A stretch of DNA of 64,000 nt from Burkholderiales bacterium (GTDB lineage: Bacteria; Pseudomonadota; Gammaproteobacteria; Burkholderiales; SG8-39), in the NCBI GenBank assembly GCA_035607175.1, contig DATNCP010000075.1, positions 7,774-71,773 of the forward strand, written 5' to 3'. The position numbers were made by a program, and so were the translations under genes. The notes under the pieces were generated by a model, which worked only from the letters and a program-made list of their open reading frames with translations, did no database searches and was not told the DNA's origin. Below, one piece after another: positions 17,808-29,372 of this stretch; position 1 is the stretch's first letter; every line of letters starts with the position of its first letter.

Positions 17808-18419
17808 TTGATTCGCGCAGCCTGTGTCGCACTCGCGCTTCTCGCGGGCTGCACCGCCAGCCGCCTGGTGTCGCAGCAGAGCAATCCCGAGTACGTCGGC
17901 AAGTCCTTCAAGAGCATCATGGTGGTGGCGGTGACTTCGGACGAGCTGCTCCGTCGCAACTACGAGGATCGCATCGTTGCGCTGCTCGCCAAGCGCGGAC
18001 GAAAGGCCCTCCCCGCGTACGCGGCGATCGGCACACGCGGCAAGGTCGAAGAAGCGCAGCTGCGCGAGGCCATCGCCCGGTCCGGCGCCGAAGGGGTGCT
18101 CATCACGCGGGTCACCAACGTCGCCCGGTCGTCGGGAACCGTGTCCGGCGCCACGATCGCCGTCGGCGTCGGCGTCGGCCCCGGGTGGGGTGGCTTCTAC
18201 GGCTTCTACTCCGGCGTATGGCAGACGGTCGATGTTCCGCCGGAGACGATCATCGGCCCGAAGTGGACCGCTTCCGAAACGCGCCTGTTCGATGCGAGCA
18301 ACGGCGCGCTGGCGTGGACCGGTGTCGTGGATACCCGGGAAAGCGCCGACTTCGCCGCGGCTTTGACGCAGTACATCGATCTCGTCTTCGACGCCATGGT
18401 GAGCGATCGTGTTCTCTAA
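17808..18419 (+). CDS. Lipoprotein (DUF4136-like), paralog 1
   Basis: TTG at 17808 with 'gaagagg' 6 nt upstream. Lipobox 'LALLAGC'. Shares 'K..L.v.V.S.E......D...A.L.KRG ... I..SGA..vL..RVTN' with the next gene. Confidence 0.65.
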   Translation: MIRAACVALALLAGCTASRLVSQQSNPEYVGKSFKSIMVVAVTSDELLRRNYEDRIVALLAKRGRKALPAYAAIGTRGKVEEAQLREAIARSGAEGVLITRVTNVARSSGTVSGATIAVGVGVGPGWGGFYGFYSGVWQTVDVPPETIIGPKWTASETRLFDASNGALAWTGVVDTRESADFAAALTQYIDLVFDAMVSDRVL

Positions 18420-19047
18420 CCTCCGTGCGGGCGCGGTGCTCGGCATCATGGTGCTGGCGACGGCCTGTTCCACTCAGCCCGTGACGACAGTCGAAGTCAG
18501 CTGGGTCGCTCCCCAGCTGCCGGAAACGCCATTCAAGAAGCTGCTGATCATCACCGTGGCGAGCGAAGAGTTCGTGCAGATCGCCTTCCAGGACCAGATG
18601 GCGGCGCAGTTGCAGAAGCGCGGCGTCAACGCCGTGGCGTCCCGCCGCTATTTCACCCGCTACACCGACGCCGAGAAAGCGCGCTTCATGCAGAGCATCG
18701 CCGAGTCGGGAGCCGATTTCATCCTGCTCGCGCGCGTCACCAATACCGACATCGGCACGCTGGAGAACCGCGGCACGATCGTCGGATACGATGGCTTGCC
18801 CTACGCGGATGCGAACAGCGTCAACGGCGCCTATGCGCGCGCCTTCACGGGCGGAATGCGCGAAGGGGGCGACCACTCGGTGAAAACCGTGACCGCGGAG
18901 ACGTCGATCTTTGCCGTGCAGGGCCAGAAGCTGATCTGGTCCGTGAGGACCAAGTCGACCAATGCCCACCGCAAGACCGGCGAAGAGGGCGCGGCGCTGT
19001 ATATCCCCGTCATCCTCGAGGCGATGAAGAAGGACAGGCTGATCTGA
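18409..19047 (+). CDS. Lipoprotein (DUF4136-like), paralog 2
   Basis: GTG start 11 nt inside the previous gene. Lipobox 'VLATAC'. Paralogous to 17808..18419. Confidence 0.7.
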   Translation: MFSNLRAGAVLGIMVLATACSTQPVTTVEVSWVAPQLPETPFKKLLIITVASEEFVQIAFQDQMAAQLQKRGVNAVASRRYFTRYTDAEKARFMQSIAESGADFILLARVTNTDIGTLENRGTIVGYDGLPYADANSVNGAYARAFTGGMREGGDHSVKTVTAETSIFAVQGQKLIWSVRTKSTNAHRKTGEEGAALYIPVILEAMKKDRLI

Positions 19048-19050
19048 CCT

Positions 19051-22000
19051 TCAGCCCACCCAGAGCCGCGCGTTCCTGAAAAGCTGCATCCACGGCGAAT
19101 CCTCGCCGCGGCCGGGCGGCGACCACGACATCTGCAGGGTGCGGAAGACGCGCTCGGGATGGGGCATGACGATGGTGAAGCGCCCGTCGGCGGTGGTCAC
19201 GCCGGTGATTCCCTGCGGCGAGCCGCTCGGATTGAACGGATAGCGGTCGGCGACCGCGCCGCGGTTGTCGACGTAGCGCATGGCCACGATCGCGTGCCTT
19301 TGATCGTCTTTTTCGAAAAATGCCCTTCCTTCCCCGTGCGCCGTCACTACGGGGATACGACTCCCCGCCATGCCGCGGAAAAGGATCGACGGGCTGTCGG
19401 TGATTTCGACCATCACCAGCCGCGCCTCGAACTGCTCCGAGCGGTTGCGCACGAACACCGGCCAGTGCTCCGCCCCGGGGACGAGCTCCTTCAGCTGCCC
19501 CATCATCTGGCAGCCGTTGCAGGCGCCCAGAACGAACGTGTCCTTGCGCGCGAAGAAGGCTTCGAATTCCGCGCGCGTACGCTCGTTGTGGAGGATGGTG
19601 CTCGCCCAACCGCGGCCGCCGCCGAGCACGTCGCCGTACGAGAAGCCGCCGCCGGCCGAGAAGCCCTTGAAGCCCGCCAGCGTCACGCGCCCCGCGATGA
19701 GATCGGTCATGTGCACGTCGACCGACTCGAAGCCGACGCGATCGAAGGCCGCCGCCATCTCCACCTGGCCGTTGACGCCCTGCTCCCGCAGGATCGCGAC
19801 CTTCGGCCTCGCCCTTGAGCCGACAGCGACGCTCTTCTCTTCGAAGGTGAGATGGATCGAGAGGCCCGGATCATCGGGTGCGATGAGGCGGTCGTACTCC
19901 TCGCGCGCGCACTCCGGGTTGTCGCGCAGCGCCTGCATGCGGTAGGTGGTCTCGCTCCAGGCGCGCTGCACGTGGTCGCGCCGGTTCTTGTAGATCGTCC
20001 GATTGTTGCGGGTGATGCGGATCTCGTCGCGCGCATTGAGCTGGCCGACGACCTGGCTGCACTCGCCCAGCCCCGCCGCGCGCAGGCGCTCCATCACGCG
20101 CGCGCGATCGCCGGCGCGAACCTGCAGCAGCGCGCCGAGCTCCTCGGAGAACAGCGCCGCGAGCGCAAGGTCCTTCGCCTTGCCGGCGAGCTGCTCCTCG
20201 GCGCCGCGGCGAAACGCATCGACGTCGTCGCTCGCCGCCTCGAAGGCCAGCGCGTCGATGCTGAGCGTCACGCCGCAATGCCCGGCGAACGCCATCTCGC
20301 ACGCGGCGACGAACAGCCCGCCGTCGGAGCGGTCGTGGTAGGCGAGGATCAGCGCCCGGTTTGCCTGGATGAACTCGAAAAAGCGCTGCAGCAGCGCGGG
20401 ATCGTCGAGGTCGGGGCAGGCATCGCCGAGCGCGCCGTGCACCTGCGCCAGGATCGAGCCGCCGAGGCGGTTCCTGCCGCGCCCGAGGTCGATCAGCACC
20501 AGCTCGGTGTCGCCGGCGTCGGTGCGAAGCTGCGGCGTGAGCGCCTCGCCGACGTCGCCCACCGGCGCGAAAGCGGTGACGATCAGCGAAAGCGGCGCGA
20601 CGATCTCTTTCCCCTGCCACGAGGTCTGCATCGACAGCGAATCCTTGCCGACCGGAATGGCGACACCGAGCGCCGGGCAAAGCTCGAGGGCCACCGCCTT
20701 CACCGTGTCGTAGAGCGCGGCGTCCTCGCCGGGATAGCCCGCCGCCGCCATCCAGTTCGCCGACAGCTTGATGCTGGACAGGGAAGGAATCTGCGCCGAC
20801 GCGATATTGGTAATCGCCTCCGCGACCGCCATCCGTCCCGACGCAGGCGCGTCGATGAGCGCGAGCGGCGTGCGCTCGCCGAGCGCGAATGCCTCGCCTG
20901 CCTTGCCTTCGAAGTCGCGCAGGGTCACGGCGCAGTCGGCGACCGGGACTTGCCACGGGCCGACGAAGGGATCGCGAGCGCACAGACCGCCGACGGTGCG
21001 ATCGCCGATCGCGATCAGGAAGGTCTTGTCCGCCACCGCCGGATGGCGCAGGACGCGATGGATCGCGCCCTCCAGCGAGATCTTCTCCAGGGAGAAGGCG
21101 TGCAATTCCGCCGGCACGCGCTTCACGTCGCGCAGCATCCGCGGCGGCTTGCCGAGGACCATCTCCAGGTCGACGTCGATCGGCTTGTTCCGGAACTTCG
21201 GATCCTCGACCACCAGCCTGCCGTCGTCGCTCGCCTTGCCCAGCACGGCGAACGGGCAGCGTTCCCGCCCGCAAATCGCCCGAAACGCTTCCAGGCTGGA
21301 AGGATGAATGGCCAGAACGTAGCGTTCCTGCGACTCGTTGCACCAGATCTCGCGCGGCGACATGCCGCTGTCCTCGGCGGGCACGGCGCGCAGGTCGAGG
21401 CGCGCGCCACGCCCTGCGCCGTGCGCAAGCTCCGGCAGCGCGTTCGAAAGCCCGCCCGCGCCGACGTCGTGGATCGAGAGGATCGGGTTCTTCTCGCCAA
21501 GCTGCCAGCAGCGGTCGATGACTTCCTGCGCGCGGCGCTGGATCTCGGCGTTGTCGCGCTGCACCGAGTCGAAGTCGAGGTTCTCGACGTTGGTCCCCGC
21601 GCCCATCGACGAGGCGGCGCCGCCGCCCATGCCGATCAGCAGCCCCGGCCCGCCGAGCTGGATGAACAGCGCGCCGGCCGGCACGGCCGCCTTCTTCGAC
21701 TGCGGGGCGCTGATCGCGCCGATGCCGCCGGCCAGCATGATCGGCTTGTGATAGCCGCGGTTGCCGAGCTCGAAGGTGCGGAAATAGCCGCACAGGCTCG
21801 GCCGGCCGAACTCGTTGTTGAACGCCGCCGCGCCAATCGGCCCGTCGAGCATGATGTCGAGCGCCGACGCGATGCGCTCCGGCTTCCCCGGGCCGCCCTC
21901 CTCCCAGGGCTGCATGTGCCCGGGGATGCGCAGATGCGAGACCGAGTAGCCGACCAGGCCGGCCTTCGGCTTGGCGCCGCGTCCGGTCGCGCCTTCGTCG

Positions 22001-22914
22001 CGGATCTCGCCGCCGGCCCCGGTCGCCGCGCCGGGAAAGGGCGAGATCGCGGTCGGGTGATTGTGCGTCTCGCACTTCATCACCGTGTGCGTCAGCTCCG
22101 GCTGCTGTCGGTAAACGAAATTCCCGTCGGCGAAAAATCTCTTCGCGAGCACCCCCTCCATGATCGCGGCGTTGTCGGAGTACGCCACCACCGTGCCCTG
22201 CGGCGAGACCGCGTGCGTGTGCCGGATCATCGCGAACAGCGACTGGGGCTGCCGCACGCCGTCGATGATCCATTCGCCGTTGAAGATCTTGTGGCGACAG
22301 TGCTCGGAGTTCGCCTGCGCGAACATGGTCAGCTCGGCGTCGCTCGGATCGCGCCCCATCGCGCGGTAGGCCTGTTCCAGGTACTCGATCTCGTCTTCGC
22401 TCAAGGCAAGCCCGAGCTCCCGGTTCGCTTTCTCCAGGTCCTTGACGGAAACAAGCTGCAGCGGCCGGGGAGGCACGTGCTCGAACAGCCTGCTCGCCTC
22501 GTCGAGGGAACGCAGCACCGTTTCGGTCATGCGGTCGTGCAGCGCTGCGGAGAGATCCCTGCCGGCGCCGCCGATGCGGTAGGCGGTGCCGCGCTCGATG
22601 CGCTTCACCTTGCCGAGGCCGCAGTTGCGCGCAATGTCGGTCGCCTTCGACGACCAGGGCGACAACGTGCCGATGCGCGGCACCACCAGATAGAACTCGC
22701 CTTTCCCGTCTTCTGCCGGAGTCCCGTAAGCGAGCAGGCGCTCGAGCCGCGCCCGCTCGGCAGCGCTCAGTTCTGCCGTGGTCTCGATGAAATGGTGATG
22801 CCCGGCGGCCACCGAGCGCACGCCGGGATCCATTTTCTGCAGGGACGCAACGAGCTTGGCGAGGCGAAACTCCGACAGCGCCCGCGGGCCTCGGAGCTGG
22901 AGGATGTCGGCCAC
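19051..22914 (-). CDS. purL: Phosphoribosylformylglycinamidine synthase (large single-chain form)
   Basis: 1287 aa from the GTG at 22914 ('[21 protein letters not shown]'). Contains the FGAM synthetase core and a C-terminal glutaminase ('GACNGCQMM'). The upstream extension of ORF 19051..23448 overlaps the preceding gene and was rejected. Confidence 0.95.
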
Positions 22915-25808
22915 TAGTTCTTGACCTGGGGCTCCTTGATCGTGCCGCCGAGGTGCAGCGTCGCGCTGACCGCGCGGCCGCCGCTGCTCGACTTGACGTC
23001 GGCCACGATACGGCCGGTCAGCGCGCCGCTCTGCGCGATATCGGCGCTGGCGCCGGCGTTGAGCGCGCCGGCGCCGATGGCGACATTGCGCAGCGAGACC
23101 GCGCCGCGGTCGTAAGTCGCCTGGCCGCTCAGCTCGTTGAACTGGGTCCGGCCGGCGTACTCCTTGCCCGAGGTGCGGATCACGCGGCCGAGATCGAAGC
23201 TGCCGAGTACCCCGGAGCTGATCGTGAAATTGCCTTCCAGCCTGCCGCCCGCGCCGAGCTTCGCCGGCTCCGGGCCGCTCATCGAGAAACGGCCGGTGCC
23301 TTCGCCCTTGCCCTCGGAGAGCAGCGCCGGCGCAAAGACCGCGGCGTTGATGTTGCGCGCCGTGACCACGCCGTCGATGCTCCAGCCGCCGCTCCAGCGC
23401 AGGTTGGCGGTGCCGGAGACGCTGCCGCCGAAGATCTTGCCGCCCCACTCGGCGATGGTCATGCCGCGCTGGCTGGCGGTGCCCTTCATGCCGAAATCGC
23501 TCAGGGTCACTTCGGGGAGGATCGGCAGCGGAAAGCCGCTCGCGGTGACGACGAACTCGACGCCGTTCGGCGCCGGCGTGATCCTGGCGAGCAGCGTGTC
23601 GGGGCCGCGGATCGTCGCCGAGCGCAGCGCGCCGTCTTCGCCGTAGACGAGCTCGGCCTCGAGCGGCTCGGGGAGCTTGGCGGCGCCGGTCACCTCGAGG
23701 TTGCGCAACACGAGGCGGTTGACCGTGAAGTTGTCGCCCTTCACCTTGGCGAGCAGGGCTTGTCCGATGGCTTCCTGCGGCAGCTTCACGCCGCTGAGCT
23801 CGATGCGCGTGAAAGTCTTCTTCTCGCCGCGCAGCGCCTCGAACTCGGGGGTCGCGGAGCCGTTCGCGATCCTCACGTCGTCGCCGAGCCGAATGTCCTT
23901 GAGCTTGATTTCCAGCCCGCCGATGAGCGACAGGCGCGCCTCGCCGATCTTCACCGGCTTGCCGAATGCCTCGGAGGCGGCGCGCTCGTAGTCGCCGGTC
24001 GACACCGGCATCACGTGCACCGCGCCGACCGCCGCGACGAGCAGCAGCACCAGCGTCATCGCGACCGGCTTGCCCCAGCCCGACTTCTTGCGTCGCAGCG
24101 ACGGCGGCTCGACGACGCTTGCCGGCCCGCCGCCACGGCGACCCATCATGCGTTTCCTGACCTCGTCCGTGTCCTCGCCGACCGCGACCGCGGGGCCGCG
24201 CGTCGCCTTGGCGGCAAGCACCTCGTCCGCCTTGGCCTTGCGCTCGCGCTCGTCGGCCTCTTTCTTGCGCCGCTCTTCCTCGTCGTGCAGGCGCTTTTCT
24301 TCCTTCTCGCGCGTGCGCGCAAGCTCTTCCTCTTCCTCCCGCTTGCGCCGCTTCTCCTCTTCCTTGCGCGCGCGCGCCTCTTCCTTCTTCTGGCGCTCGG
24401 CCTCTTCGCGCTCGCGCCGCTCGGCGTCCTCGCGCGCCCGCCGGTCGGCCACTTCCTTGGCCTTGCGCTCGGCCTCTTCTTTCTCCTTGCGATCCGATTC
24501 CTCGCGCGTGGTGAAGGAATCGAGGTCCGCCATCAGCGAATCGAGGCCGCCGGCCGCCTCCGACTTGGCCGGCGCTTCTTCCTTCTTCTTCTTCGCCTTG
24601 GGCGCGGCCTGCTGCTCTTCCTCCTCCTGCTCGCGCTTGCGGCGGGCGGAACGCTCCTCTTCCTCGCGGCGTTCGGCTGCATCTTCCTCTTCGCGCTGCT
24701 TGCGCTTCGCCGCCCGCTCTTCCTCCGCGCGCCGGTCCTCCTCGTCGCGCGCCTTGCGCCGCTCCGCCTCCTCCGCGTCCTCTCGCTTGCGCCGCTCGGC
24801 CCGCTCCGCCTCCTCGCGCTTGCGCTCCTCCTCGTGCTGGCGGCGCATCTTTTCGGCCTCTTCCTTGGCCTTGCGCTCGGCTTCCTCGCGCGCCTTGCGC
24901 GCCGCTTCCTCGGCCTCCTTGCGCGCCCGCTCCGCCTCCTTGCGTGCCCGTTCGGCCTCTTCGCGCGCCTTGCGCGCTTCTTCCTCGGCGGCCTTGCGCA
25001 CCCGCTCGGCCTCTTCGCGCGCCTTGCGCGCTTCCTCCTCGGCCGCCTTGCGCGCCCGCTCGGCCTCCTCTCGCGCCTTGCGCTCGGCCTCGACCCTGGC
25101 CTTCGCTTCGGCGTCAGCCTTGGCCTTCGCCTCCGCGGCGGCCTTGGCCGCGGCGTCGCGCGCGGCCTTGATCTTGGCGTCGGCTTCGGCCTTGGCCCGG
25201 GCTTCGGCCTCCTCCTTCATCTTCTTCTCGGCGTCGGAGCGGGCCTTGGCCTCCATCTCGGTACGCATCTTGGCTTCGGCTTCCAGCTTGACGCGCTGGC
25301 GCTCGGCATCGGCCTTCGCCTCCGCCTCCTCGCGCGCCTTCTGCAGCGCCGACTGCTGCGCCTTGGCTTGCGCGTCGGCGGCCGGATTGGGCCTCGGCGG
25401 CGGCGGTGGCGGCGGTGCTGCCGGCCTCGGCGGCGGCGCCGCTGGCCGGGATGGGGCCGGTGCTGCCTTGGGCACGCCGAGGGAGCTGAAATCGAGGTCG
25501 CCCCCGGAATCGTCGGCGGCGGGCTTGGCCGCCGGCTTGCCGGCCGGCGCCTTTGCGGCGGGTGCGGCCGTCTTGCTTGCCGCGCCCGGCGACGCTTCGC
25601 GGATGAAGCCGTCCTTGTCGAGCTTCGAAATCAGCGTCTGGAAGGCGTTGTCGAAGCTCTTGCCGACCTTCTGGGCCACGTCGGCGAGGGTGGCCCGGCC
25701 ATCGATCGCCGAGAGCACCGCCCGATCGCCGCGCTCGAGGAAGCTGGTCTTGCCCGACGCCTCCTGGACGCCTTTGCCGGACTTCGAATAGATGGCGGTC
25801 GGGTTCAT
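22914..25808 (-). CDS. Large chimeric membrane protein: N-terminal small domain, Pro-rich linker, E/R/K/A-rich helical tract, one TM helix, periplasmic AsmA-like C-terminal region
   Basis: 964-aa ORF. aa 1-75 form a globular-looking domain. aa 76-145 are Ala/Pro-rich, including 'PPPPPPP'. aa about 146-535 are almost only E/R/K/A/D. A basic '[10 protein letters not shown]' stretch precedes the TM '[22 protein letters not shown]' (nt 24003-24068). The C-terminal 360 aa are Gly/beta-rich and end '[14 protein letters not shown]', like AsmA-family C-termini. The stop overlaps the purL GTG by 1 nt. Confidence 0.8.
24947..25054. repeat. Tandem 54-bp coding repeat (2 units, about 93% identical) inside the charged tract
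   Basis: Units 24947-25000 and 25001-25054 differ at 4 of 54 positions. They encode '[17 protein letters not shown](V/A)' twice. Confidence 0.85.
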
Positions 25809-25826
25809 TCTTTCGTTCTTATTATA

Positions 25827-28800
25827 TTAGGCAGGCGCATAACCGCCGCCGCCCGGGCTCTCGATGACGAAAACGTCGCCAGCGGCCATCTCGGTCTGAT
25901 CGAAGGGGCCGAGCTCGCTCAACCGGCCGTCGACTCGCTCGACGAAGTTGTGCCCGGGCAACCCGGGCTCGCCGCCCGCCATGCCGTGCGGGCGAACCTT
26001 GCGGTGGCCTGAAAGGATGGCGGCGGTCATCGGCTCGAGAAAGCGCACCCGGCGTACCGCGCCCTCGCCGCCGCGCCAGCGGCCGCGCCCGCCCGAGCCG
26101 CGACGGATCTCGAAGCTCTCGAGGAGCACCGGGAAGCGCCACTCCAGCACCTCCGGGTCGGTGAGGCGCGAGTTGGTCATGTGGGTTTGCACCACGTCGG
26201 CGCCGTCGAAGCCGGGACCCGCGCCCGAGCCGCCGGCGACGGTCTCGTAGTACTGGTAGCGGTCGTTGCCGAAGGTGAAATTGTTCATGGTGCCCTGCGA
26301 AGCGGCGAGCACGCCGAGCGCGCCGTAAAGGGCGTCGGTAATGCACTGCGAAGTCTCGACGTTGCCGGCGACCACCGCCGCGGGATAGCGCGGCCGCAGC
26401 ATGCAGCCATCCGGGATCAGGACCTCGAGCGGCTTCAGGCAGCCGGCGTTGAGCGGGATGTCGTCGTCGACCAGGGTGCGGAAGACGTAGAGGACCGCCG
26501 CCATGCACACGGCCGAGGGTGCATTGAAGTTGTTCGGCAGCTGCGCGGACGTGCCGCTGAAATCGATTCTTGCGGTCCTCCGGTCGCTGCCGATGGCGAT
26601 CTTCACCTTGATGACGGCGCCGTTGTCGAGGGGGAGCGAAAAACTGCCATCCTTCAACACGCCGAGCACCCGCCGCACCGACTCCTCGGCATTGTCCTGG
26701 ACGTGCCTCATATAGGCGCGCACCACCTCGAGGCCGAAGTGCTCGACCATGCGGCCGAGCTCCTGCACGCCCTTTTCGTTCGCCGCCACCTGCGCCCGCA
26801 GGTCGGCGATGTTCTGCCGCACGTTGCGCACCGGGTGCTTCCCCGAGCCGAGCAACGCGACGGTTTCTTCCTCGCGCCAGCGACCGCCTTCGACGAGAAG
26901 GAAGTTGTCGATCAGCACGCCCTCCTCCTCGACCACCTTCGAGCCCGGCGGCATCGACCCCGGCGTGATCCCGCCGATGTCGGCATGATGGCCGCGCGAA
27001 CCGACGTAGAAGAGGATTTCCTGCCGATCGAAGACCGGCGTGATCACCGTCACGTCCGGCAGGTGCGTGCCGCCGTTGTAGGGCGCGTTCAGCACGTAGA
27101 CGTCGCCGGGCTTCATCTTTCCCGCGTTCAGGCGGATCACGGTCTTGATCGATTCGCCCATCGAGCCGAGGTGCACCGGCATGTGCGGCGCATTTGCGAT
27201 CAGGTTCCCCTGCGCATCGAACAGCGCGCAGGAAAAATCGAGCCGCTCCTTGATGTTCACCGAGTAGGCGGTGTTCTGCAGGCGCAGCCCCATCTGCTCG
27301 GCGATCGACATGAACAGGTTGTTGAAGATCTCCAGCATCACCGGGTCGACCGAGGTACCGACGGCCTTGCCGCTGCTCCGCTCCTTCGTTCTCTCCAGCA
27401 CCAAATGATCAAGGTTGGTGACGGTGGCCCGCCATTCAGGCTCTACCACCGTCGTCGCGTTGGCTTCGGCGATGATCGCCGGGCCGTCGATCTTCTGACC
27501 GGCGGCGAGCTCCTCGCGGCGGTAGAGCGGTGCTTCGTGCCAGCGACCGGCGCTGAACACGCGCACCCGCTCGACCGCGCTCGCCGGAGGCTTTCTCGAG
27601 CCGGCCTGCTCCGAAATCTCTTCGCCCCTGGCAATCGCCTCGACGGAGAGCGCCTCGGCAACGAGCTTGCGACCCGGCATGAGGAACGAGAACTGCTTGC
27701 GGTATGCAGCTTCGAACTGCGCCGTCATCTCCGCGACCGACCCGAGCATGACCGGCAGCGCGGTATCGGTGCCCTCGTACTTCAAATGGACCCGCTGGAC
27801 GATGTGCTGGGCCGCGACACCCTGCGCGGCAAGGTCGTTGCGCGCCTCGGCGGCAAGCTCATCGGCCTTTGCCTGCAGCGCGGCCAGCTCCGTGAGCGGC
27901 GCCTCGACCGAGCGCTCGCGCATCGCCACCTGGTCGGCGAGCCCCATGCCGTAGGCGGACAGCACGCCCGCGTGCGGGTGGATGAAGACGCGCTTCATCG
28001 CGAGCGCGTCGGCGACCAGGCAGGCATGCTGGCCGGCGGCGCCGCCGAAGCAGCACAGCGTATAGGCGGTGACGTCGTGGCCGCGCTGCACCGAGATGTG
28101 CTTGATCGCGTTCGCCATGTTGCCGACAGCGATGCGGATGAAGCCTTCCGCGACCTCCTGCTCAGAGCGCCCGTCGTTGACTTGCCGTTTCAGTGCCTTG
28201 AACTTCGCTTCGACCGTCAGGCGGTCCAGTTCTTCGTCCCCGCCCTTCCCGAACACCTTCGGGAAATATTTCGGCTGGATCTTGCCGAGCATCACGTTGG
28301 CGTCGGTGACGGTGAGCGGCCCGCCGCGCCGGTAGCTCGCCGGCCCGGGCACGGCGCCCGCCGAATCGGGCCCGACGCGGTAGCGCGAGCCGTCGAAGTG
28401 GAGGATCGAGCCGCCGCCCGCCGCGACGGTGTGGATGCGCATCATCGGCGCGCGCATCCGCACGCCCGCGACCAGGGTCTCGAACTCGCGCTCCAGCTCG
28501 CCCGCGTAGTGCGATACGTCGGTCGAGGTGCCGCCCATGTCGAAGCCGATGATCCGGTCGAAGCCCGCTGCCGCCGCGGTGCGCACCGCGCCGACGATGC
28601 CCCCGGCCGGTCCCGAAAGAATCGCGTCCTTGCCCTGGAAGCGGCGCGCGTCGGTGAGGCCGCCGTTCGACTGCATGAAAAGCAGCCGCGCGTTGCCGAG
28701 ATCCGCGGCGACCTGCCCGACGTAGCGGCGCAGGATCGGCGACAGGTAGGCGTCGACCACCGTCGTATCGCCGCGGCCGACGAGCTTCATCAGCGGGCTG

Positions 28801-29372
28801 ACCTCGTGGGAGACGGAAACCTGCGTGAAGCCGACCTGCTTCGCGAGTGCCTTGACCGCTTGCTCATGCGCGGTGAAGCGATAGCCGTGCATGAAGACGA
28901 TTGCCACGGAACGGTAGCCCTCCGCGTACGCTTTTTTCAAATCAATTTCCGTACGGGAAAGGTCGAGAGGAACAACGACTTCCCCTCTTGCCCCGATCCG
29001 CTCCTCCACCTCGACGACTTTCGAATACAGCATCTCCGGCAGCACGATGTGCCGGTCGAAGATGCGCGGCCGGTTCTGGTAGGCGATGCGCAGCGCATCG
29101 CGAAAGCCGCGGGTAATGAACAGCGCGGTTCGCTCGCCCTTGCGCTCGAGGAGCGCGTTGGTGGCGACGGTCGTGCCCATCTTCACGCTGTCGATCTTCT
29201 CGACCGGCACCGGATCGCCCAGGAAATGCTTGATCCCGGCGATCGCCGCGTCGGCGTAGCGCCCGGGGTTCTCGGAAAGCAGCTTGTGCGTCGCGAGCCT
29301 GCCGTCGGGCTGGCGCGCGACGATGTCGGTGAACGTGCCGCCCCGGTCGATCCAGAACTGCCAGCCGCTCAT
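25827..29372 (-). CDS. Fused hydantoinase A/B family enzyme (5-oxoprolinase / ATP-dependent lactamase type)
   Basis: 1181 aa from the ATG at 29372 ('[18 protein letters not shown]'). HyuA-like N-half and HyuB-like C-half ('...[14 protein letters not shown]'). ATGA overlap with the upstream hydrolase gene. The ORF extension to 30575 was rejected. Confidence 0.9.

Follow-up and report, generated by a model that had tools for sequence, protein, structure and literature searches.

The subject of this analysis is a gene on the minus strand of a 64,000-nucleotide stretch of DNA (the window) from Burkholderiales bacterium (GTDB lineage SG8-39; GenBank assembly GCA_035607175.1, contig DATNCP010000075.1, positions 7,774 to 71,773 of the forward strand). 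Its product is very probably a bitopic inner-membrane protein belonging to a widespread and uncharacterised subfamily of AsmA proteins, in which a shortened AsmA-like periplasmic domain is joined through one transmembrane (TM) helix to a large cytoplasmic part that carries a predicted winged-helix domain at its N-terminus. An earlier note, made from the letters of the window, had drawn attention to this 964-amino-acid (aa) open reading frame (ORF) without stating its strand and had read five parts in the protein: a compact N-terminal domain, an Ala/Pro linker, a long charged tract, a basic patch with a TM helix, and a Gly- and beta-rich periplasmic region. The list of ORFs and the translation confirm an ATG-initiated frame of 964 codons, and composition and hydropathy recover each of the five parts.

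Conservation of the gene and its architecture

The gene is real and its architecture is conserved. With residues 575–964 as query, a homology search returned 161 proteins. Uncultured Burkholderiales account for nearly all of them, and many end at contig ends within the low-complexity tract. A survey of one genome per GTDB species, by tblastn and reconstruction of ORFs, yielded 80 loci, all in metagenome-assembled or single-cell genomes that bear the label Betaproteobacteria or Burkholderiales. Every one of the 65 loci with enough upstream sequence has the N-terminal domain, and at 59 of these a single intact ORF runs from it to the C-terminal domain (851–1284 aa, median 997); four of the remaining six are frame-broken and two are cut by the end of a contig.

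The same layout extends to much more distant relatives. When a profile of the C-terminal domain was scored against 1.84 billion cluster representatives (50% identity), 1536 matched at E≤1e-3 and 702 at E≤1e-30. Among 150 listed representatives the domain is nearly always C-terminal, behind 300–800 further residues, and the linker in most of those listed consists to 60–84% of E, R, K, A and D; the N-terminal domain occurs in 68 of the 71 representatives of at least 800 aa (among 148 listed). N-terminal domain, short motifs, TM helix and C-terminal domain are co-linear in hundreds of these 50%-identity representatives, and the architecture is therefore old and widespread. With the ORF intact at most loci and the architecture kept in distant representatives, the caveat of the earlier note that the gene might be a recent fusion or a misassembly falls away. 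All members seen so far come from uncultured organisms and are annotated "hypothetical" (every source-given name is "hypothetical protein", and Sulfuricella sp., with the homolog WP_325329261.1, is the only named genus seen); their function is inferred.

The periplasmic domain

The AlphaFold2 (AF2) model of the C-terminal domain has a predicted local distance difference test score (pLDDT) of 86.2 and consists of the TM helix (model residues 9–28) followed by about 24 long strands. The start and end of this region had been likened in the earlier note to AsmA/TamB-family proteins. That likeness holds at the level of the family, in which five members pass the threshold of the Pfam AsmA model, but not for the query, whose C-terminal 364 residues alone have no significant match to an AsmA-family hidden Markov model (HMM); against Pfam AsmA there is none at E≤1. 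Among 31 close relatives scanned singly, sub-threshold matches were obtained to DUF748 (16), YhdP (5) and AsmA (2). Of 64 distant members, which were placed in the family by profile search at E<1e-56, 35 match AsmA (PF05170) at E≤0.01 with a best value of 3.7e-13, ten match YhdP (best 9.3e-10), and one gives a weak T2SSN match (E 0.007). The five that exceed the PF05170 gathering score of 29.8 bits are P0340 (49.1), P0364 (45.7), P0334 (40.7), P0376 (33.6) and P0347 (30.8 bits). Since these distant members pass the gathering score and the query does not, its membership rests on transitive homology.

The AsmA matches fall in two blocks, profile positions 3–119 directly after the TM helix and positions 383–606, with about 260 central positions lacking a counterpart; the matches to YhdP lie at its positions 9–119, again right after the TM helix. 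The C-terminal domain thus appears to be homologous to both ends of AsmA without its middle, an assignment supported only at the family level, and we refer to it as a "mini-AsmA" domain. About 24 strands at ~4.8 Å would extend for some 11–12 nm, and because the domain is short (~360 aa) and the central positions are missing, it probably does not bridge the periplasm alone. No match to the Chorein_N model was seen in the family scans, a profile of close relatives matched nothing among PDB sequences at E≤10, and hhalign of the family profile with the single E. coli AsmA sequence gave a non-significant, TM-proximal alignment of 25 columns.

Close homologs of the protein (P0011, P0027, P0036, P0054, P0055, P0057, P0068 and others) carry a precomputed Pfam tag, PF27051.1. 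PF27051 is absent from every scan of our local Pfam copy; it may be a recent family that covers the C-terminal domain.

Membrane anchor and topology

Residues 582–600 are the only strongly hydrophobic segment of the protein (a 19-mer with a Kyte–Doolittle mean of 2.48). The segment that leads up to it contains a WGKP sequence conserved in alignments A1 and A2 and ends in a basic patch, and a near-invariant His (H28 of alignment A1) stands at the periplasmic end of the TM helix. The N-in topology deduced earlier from the positive-inside rule stands, as there is no N-terminal signal sequence and the basic patch precedes the single TM helix. The protein is therefore predicted to be bitopic, with its 581 N-terminal residues in the cytoplasm and its 364 C-terminal residues in the periplasm; the anchor helix directly precedes the periplasmic domain, but it does so behind all of the cytoplasmic residues.

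The charged tract and its short motifs

Most of the cytoplasmic part is a tract (residues 146–535) composed of E (28%), A (24%), R (18%), K (14%) and D (5%). It is 64% charged with a net charge of −2, 5.1% hydrophobic, and contains 1% G and P. The excess of opposite-charge pairs at i/i+3 and i/i+4 was compared with shuffled sequences and is expressed as z; over the whole tract, favourable minus unfavourable pairs amount to 0.43 per residue (z=9.7). In no heptad register does the occupancy of a and d positions by L, I, V, M or F exceed 7%, and a coiled coil was ruled out because a hydrophobic heptad seam is lacking. The tract described in the earlier note as ER/K-like accordingly carries the sequence signature of an ER/K single alpha-helix (SAH), and if fully helical it would be about 58 nm long.

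The cytoplasmic part also carries conserved short motifs. First, a motif of the form [DE]LDF[STGN] occurs 20–40 residues past the N-terminal domain in most of 60 full-length sequences compared, and the looser [DE][LI][DE]F is present in some two thirds of those 50%-identity representatives that are at least 600 aa long; a reading as a beta-clamp-binding or SSB-tail-type motif was discarded because the consensus does not fit. Second, about 45 of the 60 full-length sequences have L[LM]xDL[DE][SN]F midway along the tract, and it is also found among the representatives. Third, a subset of relatives, to which the query does not belong, has a DDLDMDEV-type motif before the TM helix.

The length of the charged tract varies widely among orthologs, whose cytoplasmic part ranges from 470 to 904 aa. 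Imperfect tandem DNA repeats with periods of 21, 24, 54, 75 and 129 nucleotides (nt) lie within the tract at 24868–25130 (minus strand), among them a 54-nt unit in 2.9 copies with an 89% match at 24930–25083. The repeats, together with the spread of total length among the orthologs, suggest expansion and contraction driven by slippage.

The N-terminal domain

The N-terminal domain is the part of the protein that is best conserved. Over the 65 loci it has a median of 75% identity with the query where the C-terminal domain has 54%, and its value is the higher of the two at all 65; the first 400 residues of the product of the neighbouring purL gene, at 72%, are comparable. Invariant positions cluster in residues 8–37 (SK.GKGVQEA.GKT..L.R..R.VL.A.DG), beginning with a near-invariant SK[ST]GKGxxExxGKT stretch at residues 8–21 (alignment A3), and the consensus of the wider family is KTAKGxxExxGKTxxLxRxLRxxLxxIDG...GYIRE. 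We considered and rejected a Walker A reading of GKGxxExxGKT, because its spacing differs from that of GxxxxGK[ST] and because the domain is too small.

The earlier note could assign this domain to no family, and a direct Pfam and NCBIfam scan of the N-terminal 80 residues likewise gave nothing significant. Weak matches from four sources nevertheless contradict that verdict and point to a winged helix with likeness to both Lrp/AsnC and PqqD proteins. First, the best match of a profile of the domain among PDB sequences is PqqD (5sxy, E 9.6e-4), followed by AsnC/Lrp regulators. Second, the AF2 model (pLDDT 61 overall, 71–78 over about residues 21–70, low confidence for the first 25) places one strand, three helices and one strand in order, where the fold of the recognition elements for ribosomally synthesised and post-translationally modified peptides (RiPP recognition elements, RREs) has three strands and three helices; in Foldseek its top matches are AsnC/Lrp winged helices (root-mean-square deviation 1.4–1.9 Å over 46 residues, probability ~0.9, E ~0.5), with E-values that are not significant because the domain is small. 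Third, Pfam scans of the domain from 18 members gave HTH_24 in seven, a best MarR_2 match of 2.6e-5, and HTH_47, TrmB and AsnC-type matches, all below curated cut-offs. Fourth, NCBIfam scans returned mainly PqqD-type peptide chaperones: PQQ_PqqD in four of the 18, PqqD_rel_X at 3e-4 in one member, MftB and ApyI, with TIGR03859 at 15.5 bits against a cut-off of 46.

The putative recognition helix (residues 54–66) is variable and acidic across the family, and the conserved surface is N-terminal, at residues 8–36; this combination makes binding of protein or peptide likelier than binding of DNA. Word-indexed searches with the domain, as a single sequence and as a diverse profile, yielded nothing but short pieces of this family, without any further architecture. 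One protein of 125 aa from an 84-kb metagenome contig (P0401) consists of this domain alone, and is either a stand-alone winged helix or a gene call broken by the low-complexity tract.

Orthologs that carry a cyclase domain

Seven of the 59 intact purL-linked orthologs (L056, L057, L059, L061, L064, L078 and L079; 1090–1202 aa) have, between LxADLDSF motif and membrane, a domain some 170 aa long (at about residues 450–720), and the representatives P0250 and P0254 carry the same domain in the same interval. By phmmer it is a homolog of P0288's cyclase domain (E ~1e-47 to 1e-51). Its presence in some orthologs may reflect either loss from an ancestor that had it or gain on several occasions. Scores against Guanylate_cyc (PF00211) are 39.7 bits for P0250, 26.2 for P0254, 32.4 for P0288, 32.7 for P0383 and 29.6 for P0113, all above the gathering score of 21.9. 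By eye, P0250 and P0288 contain what we take to be the signature residues of class III cyclases (ADV.G[FY]S, K[TI].GDG and GDGVN.A.RLE). The order of parts varies: P0288 has cyclase, charged helix, TM helix and mini-AsmA domain without an N-terminal domain, and P0383 has N-terminal domain, HLDFT, cyclase, charged helix, TM helix and mini-AsmA domain. The window protein has no PF00211 domain in the Pfam scan, the interval between motif and membrane being filled by the second part of its charged tract. As judged from these domain matches, the same periplasmic module has been combined repeatedly with a cytoplasmic signalling output, which points towards signalling or scaffolding and away from lipid bridging pure and simple. 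The earlier note had suggested an envelope-spanning ruler or landmark as one possible role; the cyclase-bearing orthologs speak rather for signalling or a scaffold.

Proposed role and alternatives

Judging from its domain composition, the protein is most likely a link between the state of the envelope or its lipids and some process in the cytoplasm, and not a simple lipid bridge across the periplasm. In the mechanism that we propose, the putative groove of the mini-AsmA domain would bind lipid, or dock on an envelope partner, at the inner membrane, and a device that couples the two sides of the membrane would have this domain as its anchor or input. The charged helix would be the long spacer, of up to the length given above, that presents the head and the motifs to cytoplasmic partners, and the head itself would bind protein or peptide. 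In the cyclase-bearing orthologs the output would be a cyclic nucleotide; in the cyclase-less window protein it would be recruitment or scaffolding via the winged helix and the motifs, or self-association. This coupling or scaffold mechanism is tentative, and a single judgement that spans it as well as the identity and architecture of the protein falls a little short of even. A more specific version, in which the mini-AsmA domain is a sensor that reports lipid occupancy or envelope contact to a cytoplasmic output (a cyclase, or an ER/K lever with a peptide-binding winged helix that recruits partners or self-assembles via the DLDF and LxADLDSF motifs), is decidedly doubtful.

Several observations weigh against this reading. 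First, the query alone, whether as the whole protein or as its C-terminal 364 residues, has no significant Pfam or NCBIfam match, and Foldseek of the C-terminal model against the PDB gives nothing significant (OspA and porins, whose sheets give a misleading likeness, are best at E ~0.06, with TamAB 22nd at E 0.22). Second, every one of the weak similarities of the N-terminal domain falls below curated thresholds. Third, the helicity and rigidity of the charged tract are read from sequence only, and with 24% Ala it could be partly disordered or self-associating. Fourth, the window protein is without a cyclase, so that a signalling role is extrapolated from its relatives. Finally, the neighbourhoods of six distant members outside the purL-linked clade share no conserved partner gene.

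The strongest alternative, possible though rather unlikely, is an ordinary AsmA-like lipid handler, whose groove handles phospholipids or lipoproteins on their way to the outer membrane, perhaps together with a partner there, while the cytoplasmic arm only positions the protein, anchors it (for instance at poles, division sites or the nucleoid periphery) or acts as a passive spacer. It draws on the family-level homology to AsmA, on a pattern after the TM helix like that of E. coli AsmA (P-x-x-D-[FY]-[RE] and then G-x-x-[VL]-x-[IL]), and on the view that AsmA-like proteins are lipid transporters (PMC10345924); short AsmA-like proteins with other cargo also exist, GspN being described as one (PMC12439988). 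However, a domain with so much of the AsmA centre missing probably cannot span the periplasm by itself, a head more conserved than the groove domain would be odd in a passive appendage, and the cyclase insertions in orthologs are hard to square with pure transport. As to an outer-membrane lipoprotein or similar conserved partner, none was found in the neighbourhoods examined.

A tethered transcription regulator of the ToxR/CadC kind, with a winged helix that binds DNA, an ER/K helix that reaches the nucleoid and a mini-AsmA domain that senses the envelope, is improbable. Such regulators have this very topology (cytoplasmic winged helix, one TM helix, periplasmic C-terminal domain), and the N-terminal domain has its weak matches to DNA-binding winged helix-turn-helix (wHTH) families (HTH_24, MarR_2, TrmB, and the AsnC/Lrp fold). 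These wHTH matches are nonetheless all sub-threshold, and the best PDB and NCBIfam sequence matches are to peptide-binding PqqD/RRE proteins; moreover, the putative recognition helix is acidic rather than basic besides being variable, the conserved surface lies elsewhere, and the net charge of the domain is only about +2.

Two further explanations can be dealt with briefly. It is very improbable that the gene is an artefact, be it a spurious ORF in GC-rich low-complexity DNA or a fusion of two genes by frameshift or misassembly: a 1019-aa antisense ORF does overlap it, one database copy (P0001) changes frame near codon 470, which implies an indel in that copy, and the four frame-broken loci point the same way, but the G+C content at third codon positions (GC3) reaches 0.90 in the frame of the gene, with 0.73 and 0.51 in the two alternative frames, and the intact ORFs and the co-linear domains and motifs described above refute an artefact for the family. 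That the protein is a paralog of TolA or TonB, an energised envelope protein with a long helical domain, is hardly credible and is effectively refuted by domain order and HMM scores: its Ala/Lys/Glu-rich helix and single TM helix, and a match to TIGR02794 (tolA_full) over residues 144–259 (E=8e-4), speak for it, but the match reaches 18.7 bits against a cut-off of 59.45 and owes its score to low-complexity composition, the helix precedes the TM helix and is hence cytoplasmic, the C-terminal domain is of the AsmA family with no TolA domain III, and no tolQR or exbBD neighbours occur at the window or distant-member loci examined.

Gene organization and neighbouring genes

The features of the gene and its surroundings are collected in Table 1. 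Both junctions described in the earlier note, an 18-nt gap after the upstream stop codon and an overlap with the GTG of purL, were found in the sequence; the latter reads TAGTG, the stop codon and the purL start codon having one G in common. A consensus scan of positions 22500–26500 found no promoter-like and no minus-strand terminator-like site between the three genes; the four terminator-like sites in that interval are all on the plus strand, a number equal to the shuffle expectation. The lack of such sites on the coding strand is consistent with co-transcription. The spacer upstream of the gene stands out sharply in this genome by its high AT content and includes a perfect TATAAT hexamer, for which no matching −35 element was found; it is therefore more likely an unstructured, purine-rich ribosome-loading region than a promoter.

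Table 1. Positions of the gene, its parts and the adjoining features in the window.
Feature	Residues	Position	Strand	Basis and remarks
Whole coding sequence, 964 aa + TAG stop (22914-22916)	1-964	22914..25808	-	ORF list, translation, GC3, intact orthologous ORFs
Putative cytoplasmic winged-helix domain	1-72	25593..25808	-	alignment, profile, AF2, Foldseek, Pfam/NCBIfam
Flexible Ala/Pro linker with PPPPPPP	73-145	25374..25592	-	A 30%, P 30%; AF2 pLDDT <50
DLDFS motif in linker	104-108	25485..25499	-	comparison of full-length sequences
ER/K/A charged tract 1, with imperfect DNA repeats	146-415	24564..25373	-	63% charged, 3.7% hydrophobic, z=8.1
LMADLDSF motif	425-432	24513..24536	-	core of 13-residue interruption at ~aa 419-432
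ER/K charged tract 2	436-535	24204..24503	-	76% charged, no G or P, z=4.6
Cytoplasmic juxtamembrane segment ending in 12-residue basic patch	536-581	24066..24203	-	translation
Predicted single TM helix, N-in	582-600	24009..24065	-	hydropathy, AF2 helix
Beta-rich, Gly-rich "mini-AsmA" domain (364 aa)	601-964	22917..24008	-	AF2; family-level Pfam AsmA
AT-rich spacer TATAATAAGAACGAAAGA, 18 nt, from upstream stop TAA to ATG		25809..25826	-	sequence
purL (context)		19051..22914	-	GTG start overlaps TAG by one base
Fused hydantoinase A/B (5-oxoprolinase-type) gene (context)		25827..29372	-	translation

Two long antisense ORFs, at 22953–26012 (1019 aa) and 24070–25791 (573 aa) on the plus strand, encode runs of Leu, Arg, Ala and Ser; both mirror the GAG/GCC-rich coding strand and are not to be annotated as genes. 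The protein P0001 (622 aa) is 100% identical to the C-terminal part of the gene product, but follows frame 3 for about 135 residues and then frame 1. The switch lies near codon 465–480, at about 24380–24420 (minus strand) of the window, where the ORF of the window itself is intact, so that the copy behind P0001 has either an indel in the low-complexity tract or a misassembly.

At 79 of the 80 loci purL lies directly downstream, and the 80th locus ends before that point. An oxoprolinase-type gene was found upstream at 44 of the 80 by tblastn; a gene in the same upstream position beside P0285 has Pfam matches to Hydant_A_N, Hydantoinase_A, Hydant_A_C and Hydantoinase_B. Among the distant members, by contrast, the neighbours are genes of NAD biosynthesis with DUF3297, a sigma-54 regulator with an aryl-polyene-like cluster, pntAB, or a GDPD-family gene with an alcohol dehydrogenase, and one has a hydantoinase without purL. 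Co-expression with core metabolism genes, which the earlier note held to be probable, is thus confined to one clade; it is not kept in distant members and carries no functional implication: since the neighbours differ outside the close clade, the junction is a local operon arrangement and no evidence of a metabolic role. We dropped a functional link to purL or the oxoprolinase for the same reason, the six distant members sharing no partner gene.

Just downstream of purL, on the opposite strand (about 17850–19047, plus), two adjacent ORFs appear to encode paralogous small lipoprotein-like proteins with similar bodies and with the Cys-containing N-termini LLAGCTASRL and LATACSTQP.

Comparison with known systems

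Single features of the protein recur in several known systems. TolA likewise has a long Ala/Glu/Lys helix on a single-pass inner-membrane protein, although on the other side of the membrane. The ER/K SAH spacers of myosin VI and X and of caldesmon share the composition, the i/i+4 pattern from E to K or R, the low hydrophobicity, the absence of a heptad seam and the proposed function as a semi-rigid spacer; the tract of the window protein differs in being bacterial, membrane-tethered and rich in Ala, and its SAH assignment comes from the sequence. With 390 residues in two parts it exceeds the well-known SAHs of eukaryotes in length by far, and it would give a bacterial example of an exceptionally long ER/K spacer.

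Bitopic regulators of the ToxR/CadC type and RodZ share the topology, with an N-terminal cytoplasmic (w)HTH domain, one TM helix and a C-terminal periplasmic domain. However, their linkers are tens of residues long rather than about 500, the periplasmic domain of the window protein is of AsmA type, and Pfam scans of the whole protein and of the N-terminal domain gave no match to the Trans_reg_C (OmpR-type) or RodZ models. PqqD and the RREs show the best sequence similarity to the N-terminal domain, including a shared LxxxDGxxT/S...A motif, but below curated cut-offs; no genes for RiPPs or pyrroloquinoline quinone lie nearby, and in the present case the domain forms part of a membrane protein. 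A likeness to membrane-anchored class III adenylate cyclases is shown by those relatives, though not by the window protein, that carry PF00211 in the cytoplasmic arm. In them the cyclase lies N-terminal to the TM helix and the sensor-like domain, which is the reverse of the usual order, with sensor and TM segments before the cyclase.

The closest parallels are with AsmA-type proteins themselves. GspN (protein N of the T2SS, or type II secretion system) is described as a protein in which an inner-membrane anchor likewise carries a short AsmA-like periplasmic domain, one that by itself does not reach across the envelope (PMC12439988). It has no cytoplasmic arm, no T2SS genes lie near the loci examined, and we note only a likeness. 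In AsmA-like proteins in general an N-terminal helix serves as anchor, the start behind it is Chorein-N-like and a beta-groove of varying length comes next, and a review of the family describes only N-terminally anchored members (PMC10345924). With that family (E. coli AsmA, YhjG, YicH, YdbH, TamB and YhdP; PF05170, PF13116, PF05359) the window protein shares an N-in TM helix directly before a periplasmic beta-rich domain. It departs from it in the internal position of that helix, in a cytoplasmic extension of about 580 aa that is absent from the described members (PMC10345924), and in the shortness of the periplasmic part; the query itself stays below every threshold. In the literature we found no AsmA-like protein described with a large cytoplasmic N-terminal extension or a cyclase fusion, in agreement with the earlier note, which had not recognised the architecture as described.

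The prevailing view is that AsmA-like proteins are periplasm-spanning phospholipid bridges that start with a membrane anchor. The family described here is large, with no fewer than 700 clusters at 50% identity, and joins what appears to be a shortened AsmA domain to a conserved cytoplasmic apparatus of 470–900 residues. Should the two parts be functionally coupled, grooves of the AsmA type could be connected with signalling or scaffolding in the cytoplasm, which would bear on how outer-membrane lipid homeostasis is sensed and regulated. Were the domain indeed a sensor, it would be the first lipid groove of the AsmA/RBG type used in that way, and part of an unrecognised envelope-to-cytoplasm system in uncultured soil Betaproteobacteria.

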